A stretch of DNA of 47,226 bases from a virus (Duplodnaviria > Heunggongvirae > Uroviricota > Caudoviricetes): IMG/VR virus record IMGVR_UViG_2737471818_000007; one strand, written 5' to 3'. Each line of letters begins with the position of its first letter. The first letter of the stretch is position 1. The notes below the pieces were generated by a model, which did no database searches, was not told the DNA's origin, and saw only the letters and a list, made by a program, of their open reading frames with translations. Made by a program: the position numbers and the translations under genes. Shown piece after piece: positions 26,260 through 36,857 of this stretch.

Positions 26260-26275
26260 ACTTTTTCTCCTGTAA

Positions 26276-26308
26276 ATAAAAAAGGGCCTCTGTCGGCCCG
26301 TAAAAAAA
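26276..26308 (-). terminator. rho-independent terminator just upstream of the holin (tR'-like)
   Basis: Minus strand GGGCCGACAGAGGCCC followed by TTTTTTATTT, about 20 nt before the holin RBS. Confidence 0.6.
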
Positions 26309-26426
26309 CACCCCATCAAAGGCACCCGCAGATGCCTTTTGTGTGGTGTTATCTGGTGTTTTCTGATGTGATGTGTACAGGACACAGATGTGAAAAAGGT
26401 CCGCCGGTACGAACCCTGTGTATGAA

Positions 26427-26455
26427 TAAAAAAATGCCCGTCAGGAGACGGGCCA
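26427..26455 (-). terminator. rho-independent terminator in the late leader
   Basis: Minus strand GCCCGTCTCCTGACGGGC followed by ATTTTTTT. Confidence 0.6.
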
Positions 26456-26508
26456 ACGCATTCATCATGCAAGAGTTAAGCAGGATTACTTGTATCGAAT
26501 TATCGGTA

Positions 26509-26583
26509 TCAGAATGAGTCGTCAACCTGCAACCGCAATTCTGACGAATCGTAGGTTCCGGTACAGGTGACGACTCATTCTGA
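26509..26583. repeat. large inverted repeat (stem ~20 bp, loop ~32 nt)
   Basis: ATCAGAATGAGTCGTCAACCTG ... CAGGTGACGACTCATTCTGAT. Confidence 0.7.
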
Positions 26584-26656
26584 TAACGCATACCATTAAC
26601 AATGTAAAAAACCAGCAAGCCTCAAATAAATTAGCATAATTAAAATCTCAGAATAC

Positions 26657-26762
26657 GATGCCTGATGCATTATCGGGATAAAGCATAATTACCTGATAAA
26701 TGAAATGCCTGCATTGCAAAGATCCTCACCAATAACCATGCTTTATCCCGATAAGGCATCAC
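26657..26762. repeat. 21-bp inverted repeats flanking a ~50-bp spacer
   Basis: TGCATTATCGGGATAAAGCAT ... ATGCTTTATCCCGATAAGGCA (20 of 21 match). Confidence 0.65.
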
Positions 26763-27056
26763 ATAATTAAATATGTTGCATTAAGATGACGTTCCGCCCC
26801 ATAACACCCTGATATTCACCTAACTCGCCATGAAATCAGAACGCCATCTGAATACACAGAAAAAAGCTGGCTTTACACCACCCTGCATGTGAACGCAGAA
26901 CTCACCCCACCACGTGCTTTCGCAACCAGCACACAATCTGTGTCAAAAACTGGCAGATGAGCAATGAAACTGCCAGTGCGGTCACCTGTCTTAGTTCGCA
27001 TCGCTAATTCTGCGTGATAACAAGCTTTTCGTTCTTATCTTATTGTGCACTCCTGG

Positions 27057-28106
27057 TTAACCCGCCTGCTCCATTATTTCACCAACGGTCTGTTCAAAAC
27101 GTTCTTTTTCCAGTTCCACGCCAGTCGCCCTGCGTCCCAGTGACAGTGCCGCTTTTATTGTCGCCCCCGACCCCATAAAAAAATCGGCAACCAAATCACC
27201 GGGGCGACTGCTGGCCTCAATTATCTGCCGCAACATATCGGCTGGTTTTTCACAGGGATGTTTGCCCGGATAATACTGCACGGGCTTGTGCGTCCAGACA
27301 TCCGTATACGGAACGGCAACTGATACGGAAAAATAACGCCGCAGGGATTTGTACTCCTTCAGCAGGCTGGCATATTGCCGGTTCAGTTCACTGTATGTGC
27401 TGACCAGCTGGTGGTGTGGCTTTTCCAGTTCCCCGCGTTGATGTTTTTCTGCTGCAACACGCGCAAACAACGCCTGTAATTTCAGATAATCACCTTCGTT
27501 CGGCAACTGCCACTGACTGATACCAAACCAGTGCGAAGCCATGTTTTTCTTTCCGGTGGCTTCCGCTATCTGTTTTGACGTTATTCCCAGTGATTCACGC
27601 GCATCACGAAAGTAAGAAATCAGCGGGGCCATGACGTGCTGTTTTAGCTCGCTCCCCTTTGCCGCATAGCCGTCATTTTTGGGCCGGTATGGCCCCTGAT
27701 AATGTTCTGCAAACAGAATGCGTTCTGTTGCCGGGAAATACGCCCGCAGGCTTTCCTTGTTGCATCCGTTCCAGCGTCCGGACGGCTTCGCCCAGATAAT
27801 GTGGTTCAGCACATTAAAGCGCTCACGCATCATGATTTCGATATCAGATGCCAGGCGATGACCACAGAACAGGTAGAGACTTCCGGCAGGTTTCAGTACC
27901 CGCCAGAACTGCGCCAGACACTGTTCCAGCCATTTCAGGTAATCATCGTCGCCCTTCCACTGGTTATCCCAGCCCTCGGGCTTCACTTTAAAGTATGGCG
28001 GGTCTGTGACTATCAGATCGACTGAGTTTTCCGGTAAGGTCTGGATAAATTCCAGGCAATCAGCGTTGATTAACTCACAACTGGATATTTTTACAGTATT
28101 AACCAT
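27057..28106 (-). CDS. DNA methyltransferase, beta-class N6-adenine/N4-cytosine type
   Basis: 349-aa ORF with ATG at 28106; motif IV DPPY near the N-terminus (LIVTDPPYF) and motif I FxGxG near the C-terminus (DFFMGSGAT). Confidence 0.8.
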   Translation of the reverse strand: MVNTVKISSCELINADCLEFIQTLPENSVDLIVTDPPYFKVKPEGWDNQWKGDDDYLKWLEQCLAQFWRVLKPAGSLYLFCGHRLASDIEIMMRERFNVLNHIIWAKPSGRWNGCNKESLRAYFPATERILFAEHYQGPYRPKNDGYAAKGSELKQHVMAPLISYFRDARESLGITSKQIAEATGKKNMASHWFGISQWQLPNEGDYLKLQALFARVAAEKHQRGELEKPHHQLVSTYSELNRQYASLLKEYKSLRRYFSVSVAVPYTDVWTHKPVQYYPGKHPCEKPADMLRQIIEASSRPGDLVADFFMGSGATIKAALSLGRRATGVELEKERFEQTVGEIMEQAG

Positions 28107-28256
28107 AGATCAATAAGCACTTCTCTGATAGGCTCATACCGCTTTTGCGCAAAGCAGATGGGCCTGAGGTTTGCTTGTGACCCCAAAGCATGAGCAGATG
28201 GCTGGCAGGTGCCGCTAACACCCACCAGCCGCCCATTACCACAAATTAAAAAGCCT

Positions 28257-28454
28257 TCACTGCGGAAGGCGTCTGTAACAACCGAACTGATAATCTGCCA
28301 GACCCGCCATAACAAGCTGAGTCAGTATTAACTGGCAGCGTTCGCGTGAAAGGTAAGTATTCTGCGCAATTTCCCCGACGGTCGCCGGTTCGGTGACGCG
28401 TAATTCATTAAAAACCACTCTGGCGGTTTCGGTCATATCCTGCTGTTTTAGCAT
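28257..28454 (-). CDS. small putative winged-helix DNA-binding protein
   Basis: Track ORF 28257..28634 trimmed to the ATG at 28454 (MLKQQDMTETARVVFNELRVTEPATVGEIAQNTYLSRERCQLILTQLV..., 65 aa); upstream of the methyltransferase on the same strand; function inferred only. Confidence 0.45.
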   Translation of the reverse strand: MLKQQDMTETARVVFNELRVTEPATVGEIAQNTYLSRERCQLILTQLVMAGLADYQFGCYRRLPQ

Positions 28455-28576
28455 GTCTTTTTCCCTTTTCCGGTTAACGTGACATACCAATAACTCTTGT
28501 CGAAAAAGCCAGCAAGCTGAAAGACTGGTATTCGTAACCACCAGCGCGTTTAACGTACTGTACCACTTTTCGGGCA

Positions 28577-28603
28577 CAAAAAACCCGCTCGGCGGCGGGT
28601 TTA
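28577..28603 (-). terminator. putative rho-independent terminator
   Basis: Minus strand AACCCGCCGCCGAGCGGGTT followed by TTTTTGTG. Confidence 0.4.
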
Positions 28604-28713
28604 GGCTGTGTGGCGAAGCGACTATCCTTAACACAATACAATAGTTTTTGCGTACGCGTTAATGATTTTGTAAAATTAATTGATGGGTTGATTTTAAAAC
28701 AAGGATATATTAT

Positions 28714-30117
28714 ATGGCTCGTAAAGATTTCACTCAGCAAATAGACATTCCAATTCAAAATATCCTCCTCGATACTGAAAATGCCAGAATCCGCGCAGGT
28801 AGAGATCAAAACAACTGCATTTCAAGGATATTGCGTAAAGAAAACCAGATGCTTGTATTGATGGAGGATATTGCAGAAAACGGACTTACAACCATGCCCA
28901 TATTGGTTATGCCTCACTCAGAAGGTAAATGGGTAGTTAAAGATGGTAATAGACGAATAACAGCTTTAAAACTATTAAATAACCCAGATAGTTGCCCGGA
29001 ACCACATTTAATTCCGAAAATAAAAAAAATAAAAGAAAAATATCATGACAACATACCTACTACTGTTGACTGTTTATCAAGTGACAATTTTGAAGCAGTA
29101 TTTAAAGAGATAATAGCAAGGCATTCTGGAGCACGTAATGGTGCTGGTCAATATGACTGGTTTGCATATATGCGAACAATTTATCTATTAAATAATGGAC
29201 ATCCAACTGATTATAAAAGAGCTGGTCAATATATGTGTTGGGCTGAACAAGAAGGCATTGATGTAGATGATGATTTCCCAATCACTAGTGTAGCCAGATT
29301 CTTTACTAGAGATAATCTTCTATTGTTAGGATTTGAAGTGGAAAATGATAAATTGAAGCCAATACTCTCAAAAGAAAAAATAATAAAAATGGCCTCAAAA
29401 ATTAATAGCGACTTTTCTTCAAAAATAGTTGATGTTAACACCGTCTTTAATCCTAGCGATGCAAAGAAATATCTTTGCTCGGTAAGAAAATATGCAGGAA
29501 TAATAGATGATTTTGCTTACAATAGTGATGACACAGAACAAGAAAATAATAAAAAAGAAGAAACAAATAAATGTTCCTCTCCATCTGAAGTGGATAACAA
29601 TAATGCGCAATCAGATAGTAAGAGTGACGCACCTGTACTACTAAAAAAACACGCAGGTAGAGGAGGTACACCTAAAAAAATACCAGCAGAGCGAAATAAA
29701 ATTTTTGGTAGAGGAAAGCCTGGAATTACTATTCCTGAAAATGAGACTAAAATAAGAACTATAATCTCAGAACTTAGGCAATTAGATGTAAAAAAAACAA
29801 CTCTTGCAACTGCATTTCTTCTTCGGGCACTGCTGGAGTTAAGTGATAAAGAATATAGAACAATTAACAAGTTGCAAGATAAAAAAAGCTTAGCTAAAAA
29901 TATTGCTAATAGCGCAGATCATATGTTGAAAAATAATCTAATCACTGACTCAGAACACCATATAATATCAGCTTATACTCGCGGCGAGCAAGGAACTGTG
30001 CACATTGAAACTTTACAAAAATTAATTCACAGAGAGACACATCACCCAGATTATATCTCAATTAATGTTTTTTGGGACAATATAGGTTGTTTTGTTCGAG
30101 CTTGTTGGAAAGATTAA
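28714..30117 (+). CDS. ParB/Srx-fold (DGxRR motif) N-terminal domain protein, unknown function; candidate nuclease or defence protein
   Basis: 467-aa ORF with ATG at 28714; N-terminus has ParB-like motifs (ILLDTENARIR; GLTTMPILVMP; VVKDGNRRITALKLL); Lys-rich low-complexity linker; His-rich C-terminal domain; very AT-rich. Confidence 0.65.
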   Translation: MARKDFTQQIDIPIQNILLDTENARIRAGRDQNNCISRILRKENQMLVLMEDIAENGLTTMPILVMPHSEGKWVVKDGNRRITALKLLNNPDSCPEPHLIPKIKKIKEKYHDNIPTTVDCLSSDNFEAVFKEIIARHSGARNGAGQYDWFAYMRTIYLLNNGHPTDYKRAGQYMCWAEQEGIDVDDDFPITSVARFFTRDNLLLLGFEVENDKLKPILSKEKIIKMASKINSDFSSKIVDVNTVFNPSDAKKYLCSVRKYAGIIDDFAYNSDDTEQENNKKEETNKCSSPSEVDNNNAQSDSKSDAPVLLKKHAGRGGTPKKIPAERNKIFGRGKPGITIPENETKIRTIISELRQLDVKKTTLATAFLLRALLELSDKEYRTINKLQDKKSLAKNIANSADHMLKNNLITDSEHHIISAYTRGEQGTVHIETLQKLIHRETHHPDYISINVFWDNIGCFVRACWKD

Positions 30118-30163: not shown

Positions 30164-31018
30164 TCATTTCTTCTTCATAGAGGGAGTGCTATGAATATTT
30201 AAATTTTTATATACCATAAGTTCTGTAACTCTTGGCCTTGTCAAATGAGTTGAGTAATGTAAAGAAAACTCCACAATTTTTTCGTCTTTATATAACTTCC
30301 TGATTTCTTCACAATTATCATATGTAACAATTATCGGAGTGGAAATATCCTTAACCTTTTCAGAAATTAATTTATGATCATGAGGTTTATAATGATTTCT
30401 ATAAAGCTGGCTACCTTTTTCATAATATGGAGGATCAAGATAAATTAGAGATTTTTTTGGTAGTGTATTTTTTATACTACCAATCAACTCACAGGCATCC
30501 AAATTATAAAGATCAATAAATTTTTTCATTCCACCTATTTTTTTTACTCTTTCACATAGTTTCTTCTTATTATACCTAGCATCAATCTTATATTTACCAC
30601 TCTGTTCTTTTCCTCCTATAACCCCACCTGATAAGATTCCAGAACGATTGGTTCGATTGAGAAAAAACGTAGCAAAACCAATAGATAAAATATCATGTTT
30701 AGTATAATTGTTTATTACATCTTTTTGCTTATACCAATTATCCATTGTTACTTCTGTTTCATTTATCAATGAAATAAATTTATCATTCTCATTTAACACT
30801 GACCACCAAAATGAGTAAACAACAGGATCCAAATCATTAATAATGACATGATCTACATATCCATGCATTAGCAAATACAATGCAGCTCCTGCGCCGCCAG
30901 CATATGGCTCCACATAATACCCACCACTAATTCCGTTATACCTCAGCAGTTCTGATATCCAAGGCCCCATCCTCCCTTTTCCACCGGGATAACGTAATGG
31001 GGTAAAAAATGTAGTCAT
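30164..31018 (-). CDS. DNA adenine methyltransferase, D12 (Dam-like) class
   Basis: Track ORF 30164..31054 trimmed to the ATG at 31018 (MTTFFTPLRYPGGKGRM..); motifs YPGGK, VEPYAGGAG, FLNRTNRSG, YLDPPYY parallel E. coli Dam; AT-rich; convergent with the ParB-like gene. Confidence 0.8.
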   Translation of the reverse strand: MTTFFTPLRYPGGKGRMGPWISELLRYNGISGGYYVEPYAGGAGAALYLLMHGYVDHVIINDLDPVVYSFWWSVLNENDKFISLINETEVTMDNWYKQKDVINNYTKHDILSIGFATFFLNRTNRSGILSGGVIGGKEQSGKYKIDARYNKKKLCERVKKIGGMKKFIDLYNLDACELIGSIKNTLPKKSLIYLDPPYYEKGSQLYRNHYKPHDHKLISEKVKDISTPIIVTYDNCEEIRKLYKDEKIVEFSLHYSTHLTRPRVTELMVYKNLNIHSTPSMKKK

Positions 31019-31105
31019 GCTGAACCTCATACAAAACCAGGAAATTAAATGCATTTTACCCTAAATCACATCAATTCTAAATAACTAAATTAACAGTATT
31101 AAAAT

Positions 31106-31459
31106 TCAGTTATCTGAAAGTATAAATAGCATCCCATCAACGAACCCCAATGCTGTTTGTAGTTCTTTTCTGATTGTGCCATCTGAACACTTCCGCTTTT
31201 TTGCAATTGTACGGAGAGAAATCCCGATAACAAAGTGAGCAATGATCAGCTCATATTCTTCTGGTTTATATTTCCGCAACCGGGCCACACATCCATCAAT
31301 CATAATTCCTTCATCATCATCGCACTGGAGACGTGACATTTTACCGTGTGGTAGAAGCCCCTTGAAGCCTGCCGCTATCGACTGCCAATCAACACCACTA
31401 TTTTCTGCTGCAGCCCATGCCCCCCAGCGGTCTAAAACCTCATACATATCACGCCCCAT
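31106..31459 (-). CDS. Q: late-gene antiterminator Q (QuuD / phage 82 Q family)
   Basis: Track ORF trimmed to the ATG at 31459 preceded by AGGTG; ..LDRWGAWAA..SIAAGFKGL..CDDDEGIMIDGCVARL.. resembles DLP12 QuuD (recalled). Confidence 0.75.
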   Translation of the reverse strand: MGRDMYEVLDRWGAWAAAENSGVDWQSIAAGFKGLLPHGKMSRLQCDDDEGIMIDGCVARLRKYKPEEYELIIAHFVIGISLRTIAKKRKCSDGTIRKELQTALGFVDGMLFILSDN

Positions 31460-31820
31460 TACTAACACCTCTAATTTCGCAAATCTTCACGCCCAGCCGA
31501 CCACCAGGAACGGGCTGACCGCGCACAATATTAATTTCATCAAACTGCTCGTCGTCGATAAGCAGTCCCGCATGCGTCAGCGCATCCAGCGGTGCTTTCA
31601 GGATATTGTCCAGATCACGACGGCGCTTATCCGGTGGCTCTGCAATAATCTTTATCGCCAGCCTTCCGGACAGGTTTAATTTCAGCCGCTGCTGGCAAAC
31701 AATAAGCGCCACATCCCGGCGATAACGCTCACCGGCTTTTGATACAAAATATGTGCTGCCACGACGTCGCCAGTAGGTGTTCACCGTTGGCGGGTAAGGC
31801 AAAACAAACTCTATACGCAT
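31449..31820 (-). CDS. rusA: RusA Holliday-junction resolvase
   Basis: 123-aa ORF; PPTVNTYWRRRG..RRRDLDNILKAPLDALT.. matches RusA-family motifs. Confidence 0.85.
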   Translation of the reverse strand: MRIEFVLPYPPTVNTYWRRRGSTYFVSKAGERYRRDVALIVCQQRLKLNLSGRLAIKIIAEPPDKRRRDLDNILKAPLDALTHAGLLIDDEQFDEINIVRGQPVPGGRLGVKICEIRGVSNGA

Positions 31821-36383: not shown

Positions 36384-36857
36384 CTATTTCATAAAAATAA
36401 TCCAGTGGGTTTTATCGTTTTTTCCTGTTCGTTGACCGATAACAGGTTTTCTGTCGGTCAGCACCAATATCTGGCGAACAGGTATTTGCGTTTCATTCCA
36501 TTTAAAAATCAGAACGCCGGATGGACGCAACACACGAAAGGCTGCTTTAAATCCCTGCCGCAAATCATCACGCCAGGTATCTTTATTCAGCCGTCCATAT
36601 TTCTTTCCCATCCAGGCGTTATCACCAACACGCTCAAGATGCGGAGGGTCGAATATAACCATCGAAAAAGATGCGTCTGCAAATGGTAGTGCACGAAAAT
36701 CAGCTATCAGATCAGGACTGATAATCAGGCATCGTCCATCACACAATGTGTGCTCTTCCTTTCTGATATCGCTAAATATCGCCCGGTCGTCATTCTTATC
36801 GAACCAGAACATACGGCTGCCACAGCACATATCAAGAATGGTTACCGGTGTACTCAC
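36384..36857 (-). CDS. small methyltransferase-like protein (phage Dam-like, DPPH motif)
   Basis: 157-aa ORF with motif-I-like ILDMCCGS and motif-IV-like VIFDPPH; nin-region position. Confidence 0.55.
   Translation of the reverse strand: MSTPVTILDMCCGSRMFWFDKNDDRAIFSDIRKEEHTLCDGRCLIISPDLIADFRALPFADASFSMVIFDPPHLERVGDNAWMGKKYGRLNKDTWRDDLRQGFKAAFRVLRPSGVLIFKWNETQIPVRQILVLTDRKPVIGQRTGKNDKTHWIIFMK

Follow-up and report, generated by a model that had tools for sequence, protein, structure and literature searches.

A putative Mom-like anti-restriction module with an M.EcoGII-family methyltransferase and a conserved leader RNA in the late operon of lambdoid prophages

M.EcoGII is a prophage-encoded DNA methyltransferase that methylates adenine in any sequence context, is unexpressed in the lysogen and is deleterious under constitutive expression (PMC5778455). 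How a phage silences and safely deploys an enzyme of this type has so far been undescribed. The question is raised by a locus in the IMG/VR virus record IMGVR_UViG_2737471818_000007 (Caudoviricetes). This stretch of 47,226 nucleotides (nt), here called the window, is a lambdoid prophage with its late genes on the minus strand, and its sequence is identical to the IMG/VR contig UViG_2737471870_000001. On the late strand, a methyltransferase gene encoding 349 amino acids (aa) at positions 27057–28106 is preceded by a gap of 150 nt (28107–28256) and a 65-aa open reading frame (ORF) at 28257–28454. An earlier note, made from the sequence letters, had described these genes as a cargo methyltransferase with a possible controller, and every feature that it described was found where it had been placed.

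The locus is interpreted here, as a probable but not secure reading, as a Q-dependent, late-expressed, Mom-like anti-restriction module under post-transcriptional control. It is composed of a winged-helix gene, a leader of about 150 nt and an M.EcoGII-family methylase. Four of its parts are directly supported: the enzyme belongs to the M.EcoGII family, the module sits after a tR'-type terminator and before the lysis genes, the leader is conserved and covaries, and the small gene is under selection at the protein level.

The 349-aa protein is a beta-class amino-methyltransferase, as had been proposed from its DPPY and FxGxG motifs. It matches Pfam PF01555 (N6_N4_Mtase) over residues 29–340 with 150.2 bits (cut-off 26.7; E-value 1e-43) and PADLOC MTase_II with 507 bits, and among solved structures it is closest to beta-class methyltransferases (M.RsrI, CcrM, and M.MboIIA, for example). 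The motif order is that of the beta class: motif IV (DPPY, residues 35–38, nt 27993–28004) is N-terminal, the target-recognition region is central, and motif I (FMGSG, residues 310–314, nt 27165–27179) is C-terminal. Over the full length, 298 of 347 residues (86%) are identical to M.EcoGII; the true identity may be slightly higher, because the reference sequence was taken from the machine-read supplement of the SUPREM paper and holds probable optical-character-recognition errors. The differences are evenly spread, and all motifs are intact. Phage 1720a-02, named by the authors of M.EcoGII as bearing a very similar enzyme (PMC5778455), was used as a proxy for the native M.EcoGII locus of strain C227-11. 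The enzyme of this phage shares 93% identity with M.EcoGII and, like that of the window, has the small gene and the leader upstream. Because of the full-length identity and the shared arrangement in 1720a-02, the window enzyme is assigned to the known and characterised M.EcoGII family of N6-adenine DNA methyltransferases. It is a prophage-borne orphan, with the 65-aa winged-helix gene upstream, an ORF-poor stretch and then holins downstream, and no cognate restriction gene.

M.EcoGII and M.EcoGI originate from prophages of Escherichia coli O104:H4, are identical at 333 of 349 residues, and are both non-specific; M.EcoGII is fully active alone in vitro (PMC5778455). They share with the window enzyme the length of 349 aa, the beta-class motif order, about 86% identity, a prophage location, and the lack of an adjacent restriction gene, and the window enzyme is a separate allele with 14% divergence from M.EcoGII. 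By this relationship, it would be non-specific for adenine context. That it is instead sequence-specific or inactive, an ordinary orphan methylase, is considered very unlikely. The divergence does include the central target-recognition region, and the activity of this allele is a prediction from its sequence. Against this stand the even spread of the differences, the intact motifs, the non-specificity of both characterised enzymes, and a ratio of non-synonymous to synonymous substitution rates (dN/dS) of 0.04–0.12 in the methylase family, which indicates that the enzyme is maintained. Restriction evasion, suggested in the earlier note, is accepted as the likely purpose of the methylase.

The gene order places the enzyme in the late operon. 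Along the minus strand, RusA (31449–31820) and the antiterminator Q (31106–31468; Pfam Phage_antitermQ, 151.8 bits) are followed by a D12 methyltransferase, a convergent ParB/Srx-like gene on the plus strand, a hairpin with six U residues, the 65-aa ORF, the 150-nt gap, the 349-aa ORF, about 800 nt poor in ORFs, a terminator-like hairpin, and the holins, which start at about 26260 on the late strand. The earlier placement of the methylase between Q and the holin on the late strand was thus right, and so was the terminator-like hairpin at 28577–28603 (minus strand), which has an 8-bp stem and a U6 run (−16.4 kcal/mol, z −2.9). This hairpin is kept with compensatory changes in all related phages, at the same position and downstream of pR'-like promoters, and its counterpart in SfV carries a terminator annotation. 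In SfV and Klebsiella, a lambda-type AACGAT pause element sits between a sigma-70-like promoter and the hairpin, and for this reason the hairpin is regarded as an intrinsic terminator in the position of tR', the presumed target of Q antitermination. A candidate late promoter pR' (TTAACG-N18-TATTGT, 8 of 12 consensus positions) is located at 28633–28662 (minus strand). It falls within the stretch in which homology to phiP27 and 1720a-02 sets in.

The same order recurs in other phages: Q, a variable insert, a promoter-like region, a hairpin with a U-run, the small gene, a spacer of 138–153 nt, a methylase of about 350 aa, then stx or nothing, and a holin. It was found in phiP27 (L23/L24, between Q and stx2e), SfV (orf47/48), mEp460, cdtI, and 1720a-02, and in phages of Citrobacter (phiNP), Hafnia (yong2), Providencia, and Morganella; as far as the methylase, it also recurs in Stx2a and Stx2c phages and in Klebsiella phages. 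The silence of the family in lysogens is consistent with the position of the methylase downstream of a tR'-type terminator. With this position and this silence, the label "cargo" in the earlier note suits the gene poorly.

No regulatory feature of the module is more conserved than the one in the 150-nt gap between the two genes, which was taken as empty in the earlier note. It is a structured 5' leader RNA for the methyltransferase (28107–28256, minus strand), recognized by conservation, covariation, and a covariance model. The spacer is 138–153 nt long in all loci, and across genera it is no less conserved in nucleotide identity than the methylase coding sequence. Scanning with a methylase alignment, one genome per species, revealed 80 loci; of these, 60 belong to Enterobacterales/Morganellaceae and include upstream DNA, and 55 of the 60 carry the leader. 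A true leader was found on 58 metagenomic contigs, and the methylase follows in 47 of the 52 with downstream room, the other five being 3'-truncated remnants. Among complete E. coli genomes, 2882 of 5426 (53%) contain the leader, with a maximum of eight copies in one genome. In the window, the covariance model matches once (28091–28245, 137.9 bits), and it also finds diverged copies in Vibrio and Gilliamella loci. Rfam 15, searched at E ≤ 5, has no match within 28107–28256 and none in the Vibrio counterparts.

A search of the available literature found no description of the leader or the small gene, and the only sequence match was a cloning primer. The paper on M.EcoGII contains no mention of an antiterminator, an upstream ORF, a leader, or genomic regulation (PMC5778455). 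The enzyme is already known, and its native regulatory context, including the leader RNA, the linked winged-helix protein, and the Com-like regulators of distant relatives described below, appears to be undescribed.

A coding function of the leader was considered and rejected. The ORF that begins at its conserved ATGGGC ranges from 7 to 47 codons: it reads MGGWWVL and stops in many Enterobacteriaceae, and has 16 codons in Providencia, 33 in SfV, and 47 in the window. Frame-shifting indels fall inside the conserved nucleotide blocks. Because this ORF is conserved in neither length nor frame, the leader is not regarded as coding.

The proposed secondary structure was assembled from concordant single-sequence folds and then tested. 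The minimum free energy (MFE) folds of 15 diverse leaders concur on two domains; the MFE of the window leader is −70.8 kcal/mol (z −2.9). In domain 1, helix P1 (28231–28236 with 28190–28195 on the minus strand, as for all helices; AUGGGC with GCUCAU or GCCCGU) encloses P2, a hairpin of 12–13 bp (28200–28230). In domain 2, P3 (28178–28183 with 28107–28112; GGUCA or GAUCA with UGAUC) involves the six nt just 5' of the AUG and closes P4 (28172–28176 with 28115–28119). P5 (28158–28164 with 28131–28137; GGCCCAC with GUGAGCC, including a conserved C.A) and the P6 hairpin (28151–28155 with 28141–28145) complete this domain. Nucleotides −1 to −6 are engaged by P3 in the MFE folds of the 15 leaders, and this helix covaries. 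A Shine-Dalgarno-like 4-mer at −16 to −4 is missing from 51 of 65 leaders.

Leader-like copies from metagenomes (L181, L185, L227, L261, and L276) are without the 3' strands of P3 and P4, the AUG, the methylase, or a clear downstream ORF, and look like decayed remnants.

The predicted pairs are supported by comparison among leaders. In a MAFFT alignment of 65 distinct leaders, 92.2% of the cells are paired, compared with 28–43% for slid partners, and 12 pairs show compensatory changes. In a model-fitted alignment of 70 sequences, 93.9% of the cells are paired against 26–43% for slid partners, compensatory changes occur in 21 of 39 pairs against 7–13 in slid controls, and the covariation score reaches 0.204, whereas the slid controls do not exceed 0.077. 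G.U cells outnumber A.C cells about four to one (191 versus 51), a ratio that fits an RNA transcribed in the methylase sense. The diverged Vibrio and Gilliamella copies retain P2, P3, and P6 through compensatory changes. RNAalifold on the raw MAFFT alignments returned a partial structure only, because of local misalignment, and a brute-force search for complementary column stacks gave no information, the leader being too conserved for it.

These data bear on the alternative that the spacer acts as DNA, either as a promoter or operator, as a Dam/GATC-regulated site, or as a recombination "boundary" sequence of the kind generally known in lambdoid phages. The very high conservation, which reaches into the predicted loops, the palindromic core of P6, and a conserved GATC beside the ATG would fit a DNA element. 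The compensatory changes, the excess of paired cells over slid partners, and the preference for G.U over A.C argue for RNA, as do the Vibrio helices, which are kept despite a different sequence; moreover, a consensus scan detected no sigma-70-like promoter in the spacer. A role as DNA is therefore given little credence.

One leader of the 70, from Mixta mediterraneensis (L019:2363-2516), is the only one changed in the otherwise invariant AUGGGC (G to A), and likewise the only one changed in the invariant GGCCCA (C to U); the window equivalents are 28231–28235 and 28158–28162. The paired changes preserve a long-range helix, UGGGC:GCCCA, which would compete with P1 and P5. Because this double change keeps the helix, it hints at two mutually exclusive folds of the leader. 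A more specific proposal is that the leader represents a new class of cis-regulatory RNA switch gating the translation of a toxic methyltransferase. Pairing of AUGGGC with GCUCAU would let the start-occluding domain form, and pairing of AUGGGC with GCCCA would break it; the trigger would be the co-encoded winged-helix protein, in a Com-like manner, or S-adenosylmethionine/S-adenosylhomocysteine. This proposal is put forward tentatively, as one that is more likely wrong than right.

The 65-aa protein encoded 5' of the leader is a genuine winged-helix protein, as the earlier note had supposed. It belongs to PHROG 331 (E-value 1.5e-37, function unknown), and the Prokaryotic Genome Annotation Pipeline (PGAP) names it "TrmB family transcriptional regulator". 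A Pfam profile search gave matches to eight winged-helix families, including TrmB, MarR, HTH_24, and DprA_WH, all below threshold (best TrmB, 17.7 bits; cut-off 25.6); no Pfam family reached its curated cut-off, no match to HTH_3/XRE was found in Pfam, and no NCBIfam family was matched. AlphaFold2 performed poorly from the single sequence (predicted local distance difference test score, pLDDT, 59), and the model used was built with a 36-sequence alignment. That model has a pLDDT of 92.5 and an H1-H2-H3-beta-hairpin topology, with helices at residues 9–16, 26–33, and 37–49 and strands at 53–56 and 59–62. Foldseek neighbours in the PDB are generic winged-helix domains with template modelling scores of 0.65–0.81: dimerisation winged helices of O-methyltransferases at the top, OhrR/MarR, IclR, the SECIS-RNA-binding domain of SelB, and MotA. 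DpnI-type domains are missing from the top 50 structural matches. Because the neighbours are generic, and Foldseek does not separate DNA-, RNA-, and protein-binding winged helices, the fold is silent on the ligand.

The small ORF is conserved, a point on which the earlier note had made its idea depend. The comparison with SfV gives 5 non-synonymous and 20 synonymous changes, and the dN/dS of 0.04–0.12 within the subtype of the window indicates purifying selection on a real protein-coding gene. Almost no variation is seen in the N-terminus and in helix 3 (CQLILTQLV). Helices 1–2 and the wing occur in at least two exchangeable subtypes, and natural recombinants exist. Two proteins from ENA metagenomes (P0122 and P0123) combine the N-terminal two-thirds of the window subtype with an mEp460-subtype wing, with the junction in the invariant helix 3. 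The subtypes swap independently of the leader and the methylase: SfV and mEp460 have an identical leader and a near-identical enzyme with different small-protein subtypes. The protein is slightly acidic in four of five lineages (isoelectric point 5.1–6.1), and its 65 aa include no dimerisation element.

The linkage between the small gene and the rest of the module is one-sided. In all 76 viral contigs with enough downstream DNA, the small gene is followed by the leader and the methylase. Conversely, 38 of the 55 leader–methylase loci contain the small gene and 17 lack it; in these 17, the leader directly follows tR' or an unrelated gene. No leader column significantly distinguishes the loci with the small gene from those without it. 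A locus from Xenorhabdus (L092), outside the 55, has the small gene with only a weak and diverged leader match.

The earlier note had suggested that the small ORF controls the methyltransferase. In the form of that idea considered here, the protein is a transcriptional controller similar to the C proteins of restriction–modification systems, binding DNA upstream of the methyltransferase and timing or limiting its transcription. C proteins are XRE-type helix-turn-helix dimers that bind C-boxes and mainly time the restriction gene. The window resembles such systems in having a small regulatory-looking gene immediately upstream of a methylase, and it differs in that the protein has a winged helix and not an XRE fold, the module contains no restriction or nuclease gene, and no C-box was found. 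The winged-helix fold itself, the MarR/OhrR and IclR regulators among its neighbours, the TrmB-family name, the tight linkage, and the purifying selection remain in favour of a controller, and in some lineages the DNA of the leader's P6 region forms an almost perfect palindrome (GCTTTAGCGCTAAAGC). The idea is nevertheless weakened. The protein does not reach any Pfam cut-off, lacks a dimerisation element, and is mostly acidic; no restriction gene is present to be controlled. The consensus scan detected no separate methylase promoter, and the leader helices covary and tolerate G.U, as expected of RNA rather than of an operator. Loci without the small gene have leaders that are not different, and phages with the same leader and a near-identical enzyme carry different protein subtypes. 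Because 17 of 55 loci are without the gene, an obligate controller role is unlikely, and the C-protein-like model as a whole is judged doubtful.

A different precedent is provided by distant relatives of the enzyme in Vibrio and Shewanella, which bear a Com-like gene in place of, or besides, the small winged-helix gene. Com is a zinc-finger protein that switches on translation of Mu mom: it reshapes an RNA structure in which the mom start is hidden (PMC6483171). In four Vibrio loci (L074–L076 and L090), the 3' strand of P3 holds the AUG of a 36–42-aa CxxC...CxxC ORF preceding the methylase. In Vibrio ichthyoenteri (L088) and Shewanella carassii (L091), a Com-like ORF and the start of the methylase overlap in the manner of com and mom. 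The Com-like ORFs match Pfam Zn_ribbon_Com with 24.6 and 33.3 bits (cut-off 22.9) and PHROG 6417, "translational regulator". No Com ORF is present in the window, where the sole leader ORF (MGGWWVL...) is not conserved. Since the Vibrio and Shewanella relatives carry these ORFs, post-transcriptional control is proposed to be a recurring feature of the M.EcoGII-type family, for which the leader is the candidate element in Enterobacterales.

Other Vibrionaceae loci (L078, L080, L084, L085, and L087, at about 2330–2500) contain a further conserved non-coding element, GCCUUGAGUACCUGAGACC...GGAGAGGAAGC with a GC-rich hairpin after it, between a winged-helix-like ORF and the methylase; the element also occurs upstream of the leader in L074–L076. 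It has no Rfam match.

By analogy with Com, the winged-helix protein could be an RNA-binding translational activator that opens P3 or shifts the leader to the UGGGC:GCCCA pairing, so that the methylase is made only after the protein has accumulated. One transcript carries the gene and, directly after it, the leader, and the least variable part of the protein, helix 3, occurs alongside the least variable nucleic-acid element. Winged helices that bind RNA are known, and that of SelB, which binds the SECIS RNA, is among the structural neighbours. The Vibrio loci keep the order of winged-helix-like ORF, spacer, and methylase, and relatives of the enzyme use Com-like regulators. The gene is missing, however, from a third of the leader-bearing loci, the protein is not basic, and the fold search does not discriminate RNA binding from DNA or protein binding. 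An activator of this kind is a possibility that falls short of being likely.

The third possibility is that the protein acts on the enzyme or on methylated DNA, either as a partner that restrains or targets the methylase, or as a protein that reads N6-methyladenine (m6A) in DNA or shields such DNA against methylation-dependent (type IV) restriction. The top Foldseek matches are the dimerisation domains of S-adenosylmethionine-dependent methyltransferases, and the protein ranges from near-neutral to acidic. Mrr-type enzymes attack hyper-methylated DNA. Cloning of the defence system PD-Lambda-5, which is discussed below, required an mrr deletion host (PMC9519451), and winged helices are reported as m6A sensors in prokaryotes (PMC11037411). 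On the other side, the subtypes swap independently of the enzyme, DpnI-type domains are not among the top structural matches, and M.EcoGII needs no partner for full activity in vitro. This possibility is also regarded as improbable. A module-specific role of some kind is favoured by the complete linkage on viral contigs, the strong selection, and the invariant helix 3, and the candidate roles are ranked with the Com-like RNA-binding activator first, the partner of the enzyme or of m6A-DNA second, and the C-protein-like DNA-binding controller third.

The preferred interpretation, a late-expressed module with a restraining leader, would work as follows. In the lysogen, transcripts from the late promoter would end at tR', and no enzyme would be made. 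After induction, RNA polymerase modified by Q would pass tR' and a second hairpin at the end of the small gene. This terminator-like hairpin with a U-run (28253–28270, minus strand; −9.1 kcal/mol), detected by the consensus scan, overlaps the stop codon of the winged-helix gene; its stem covaries in Enterobacteriaceae (GCCUUC/GAAGGC, GCCUCC/GGGGGC, and GCUGCC/GGCGGU) and is missing in Morganellaceae. The leader would hold down translation, with P3 pairing the six bases 5' of a start codon that usually has no Shine-Dalgarno sequence; a restraint of this kind is expected because promiscuous methylation harms the cell. The winged-helix protein may act as an accessory modulator of the translation step or of the enzyme, which is the least certain step, and it would be useful but dispensable because about a third of the leader–methylase loci are without it. 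The enzyme would then methylate adenines of the phage DNA with little or no sequence preference, like its characterised relative, and progeny DNA would be shielded from many adenine-sensitive restriction systems in the next host, the same job as that of Mom for Mu.

Several points weigh against this interpretation. Besides the imperfect M.EcoGII reference, the non-specificity of the window allele is an extrapolation from 86% identity. The leader structure was derived from the same sequences that were used for the pair counts, the better of these counts come from the alignment fitted to the structure, and much of the covariation separates a few clades only. The alternative helix UGGGC:GCCCA is supported as well, and the "off" fold with the occluded start may be only one of two states. 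The analysis identified no signal that activates the leader. The sameness of the leaders with and without the small gene gives no positive sign of a link between the two. Finally, the pR' consensus scan of the minus strand at 28604–28714 gave nothing above threshold; because the candidate described above scores below it, pR' in the window is a putative assignment.

The comparison with Mu com-mom extends beyond Com. A parallel between Mom, as a late, toxic, and lysogen-silent DNA modification, and enzymes of this type was drawn in PMC12707154. Like com-mom, the window module would provide a late-expressed and toxic modification that is silent in the lysogen and protects the phage genome against many restriction enzymes. 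The mom start is located in an RNA helix, and the methylase start of the window would likewise be held in one, the predicted P3. The chemistry is different, carbamoylmethylation by Mom versus N6-methylation by M.EcoGII-type enzymes. The window has a winged-helix partner in place of a Com ORF and a longer leader, with two domains and six helices. Its transcription would be controlled by Q antitermination, whereas that of mom depends on C, Dam, and OxyR.

In terms of lambda-type late regulation, the module occupies the same slot, directly after tR', as the tRNA and stx genes of Shiga toxin (Stx) phages. In phiP27 and many Stx2 phages, it is located between Q and stx. The window has neither stx nor tRNA genes, and it differs further by the insertion of PD-Lambda-5 between Q and the promoter region.

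PD-Lambda-5 accounts for the second methyltransferase of the region. Component A, a ParB/Srx-N protein of 467 aa (28714–30117, plus strand; PADLOC PD-Lambda-5_A, 248 bits), and component B, the D12 methyltransferase (30164–31054, minus strand; PADLOC PD-Lambda-5_B, 382 bits; MethyltransfD12, 67.8 bits), are both present, convergent, and 46 nt apart, so that the neighbouring genes match both components of the system. The pair is 98.7% identical in O121:H19 Shiga toxin-producing E. coli genomes. It is a separate unit that belongs to the context and not to the methylase module. PD-Lambda-5 is a prophage-borne, restriction–modification-like defence with broad anti-phage activity (PMC9519451). From these matches, the D12 methylase is assigned to self-protection within a defence of the lysogen against other phages, with no role in restriction evasion. 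The same spot is occupied by a gene for a GIY-YIG nuclease in phiP27 and by two reverse ORFs in cdtI; because other phages carry different inserts there, the interval from Q to the promoter resembles a hot spot for insertions.

The third methylase-like gene is a 157-aa ORF in the early region (36384–36857, minus strand). It matches PHROG 954 "DNA methyltransferase" (E-value 4e-84) and PADLOC MTase_II/oMTase (239 bits), and PGAP names it "class I SAM-dependent methyltransferase"; its Pfam matches are weak, and no match to the phage Dam family was found. Classification by hidden Markov models, as suggested in the earlier note, thus gave N6_N4_Mtase for the 349-aa protein, MethyltransfD12 for the D12 enzyme, and PHROG 954 for the 157-aa protein. 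That note had read the three methyltransferases as a joint investment in evading several host restriction systems. Three methylase-like genes are indeed present, and they occur in three settings: late anti-restriction, PD-Lambda-5 defence, and an early-region orphan. The D12 enzyme does not belong to evasion, and several methylases are not needed to counter several restriction systems, because a single M.EcoGII-family enzyme blocked all twelve restriction enzymes tested (PMC5778455).

Some other non-coding features surround the module. The 5' untranslated region of the winged-helix gene contains a block conserved from E. coli to Providencia in the upstream alignment (28478–28516, minus strand; cTTGCTG...CAGAGTTAY..GT). 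It has no significant fold (z 0.36), is a poor sigma-70 promoter, and contains no C-box-like palindrome. The interval of about 800 nt between the methylase and the holins (26260–27056), which corresponds to the slot of tRNA and stx genes in Stx phages, contains no tRNA and no convincing ORF. A strong terminator-like hairpin precedes the holin genes (26436–26453, minus strand; −14.9 kcal/mol, z −3.6), and the region around it (26424–26511, minus strand) shows a sub-threshold Rfam match of 19 bits to the prophage small RNAs AgvB/STnc100. The presumed short transcript from pR' to tR' (28578–28657, minus strand) has a sub-threshold isrK match of 16.9 bits. The terminators are the probable cause of both matches.

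M.EcoGII is a widely used reagent for chromatin adenine-methylation footprinting and a textbook example of a phage "methylate everything" anti-restriction enzyme. The observation of the earlier note, a beta-class methyltransferase preceded by a small winged-helix gene in the late region, is confirmed, and its interpretation is partly supported: the locus would be a Mom-like anti-restriction module, expressed late and restrained after transcription. Its interest rests on the leader, whose mechanism is inferred and which probably keeps the toxic enzyme in check. Together with the small winged-helix protein and the Com-like regulators, the leader ties M.EcoGII to the Mom paradigm in regulation as well as in function. 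As the module is located between Q and stx in many Stx2 phages, any effect on the late transcript could also bear on toxin expression.

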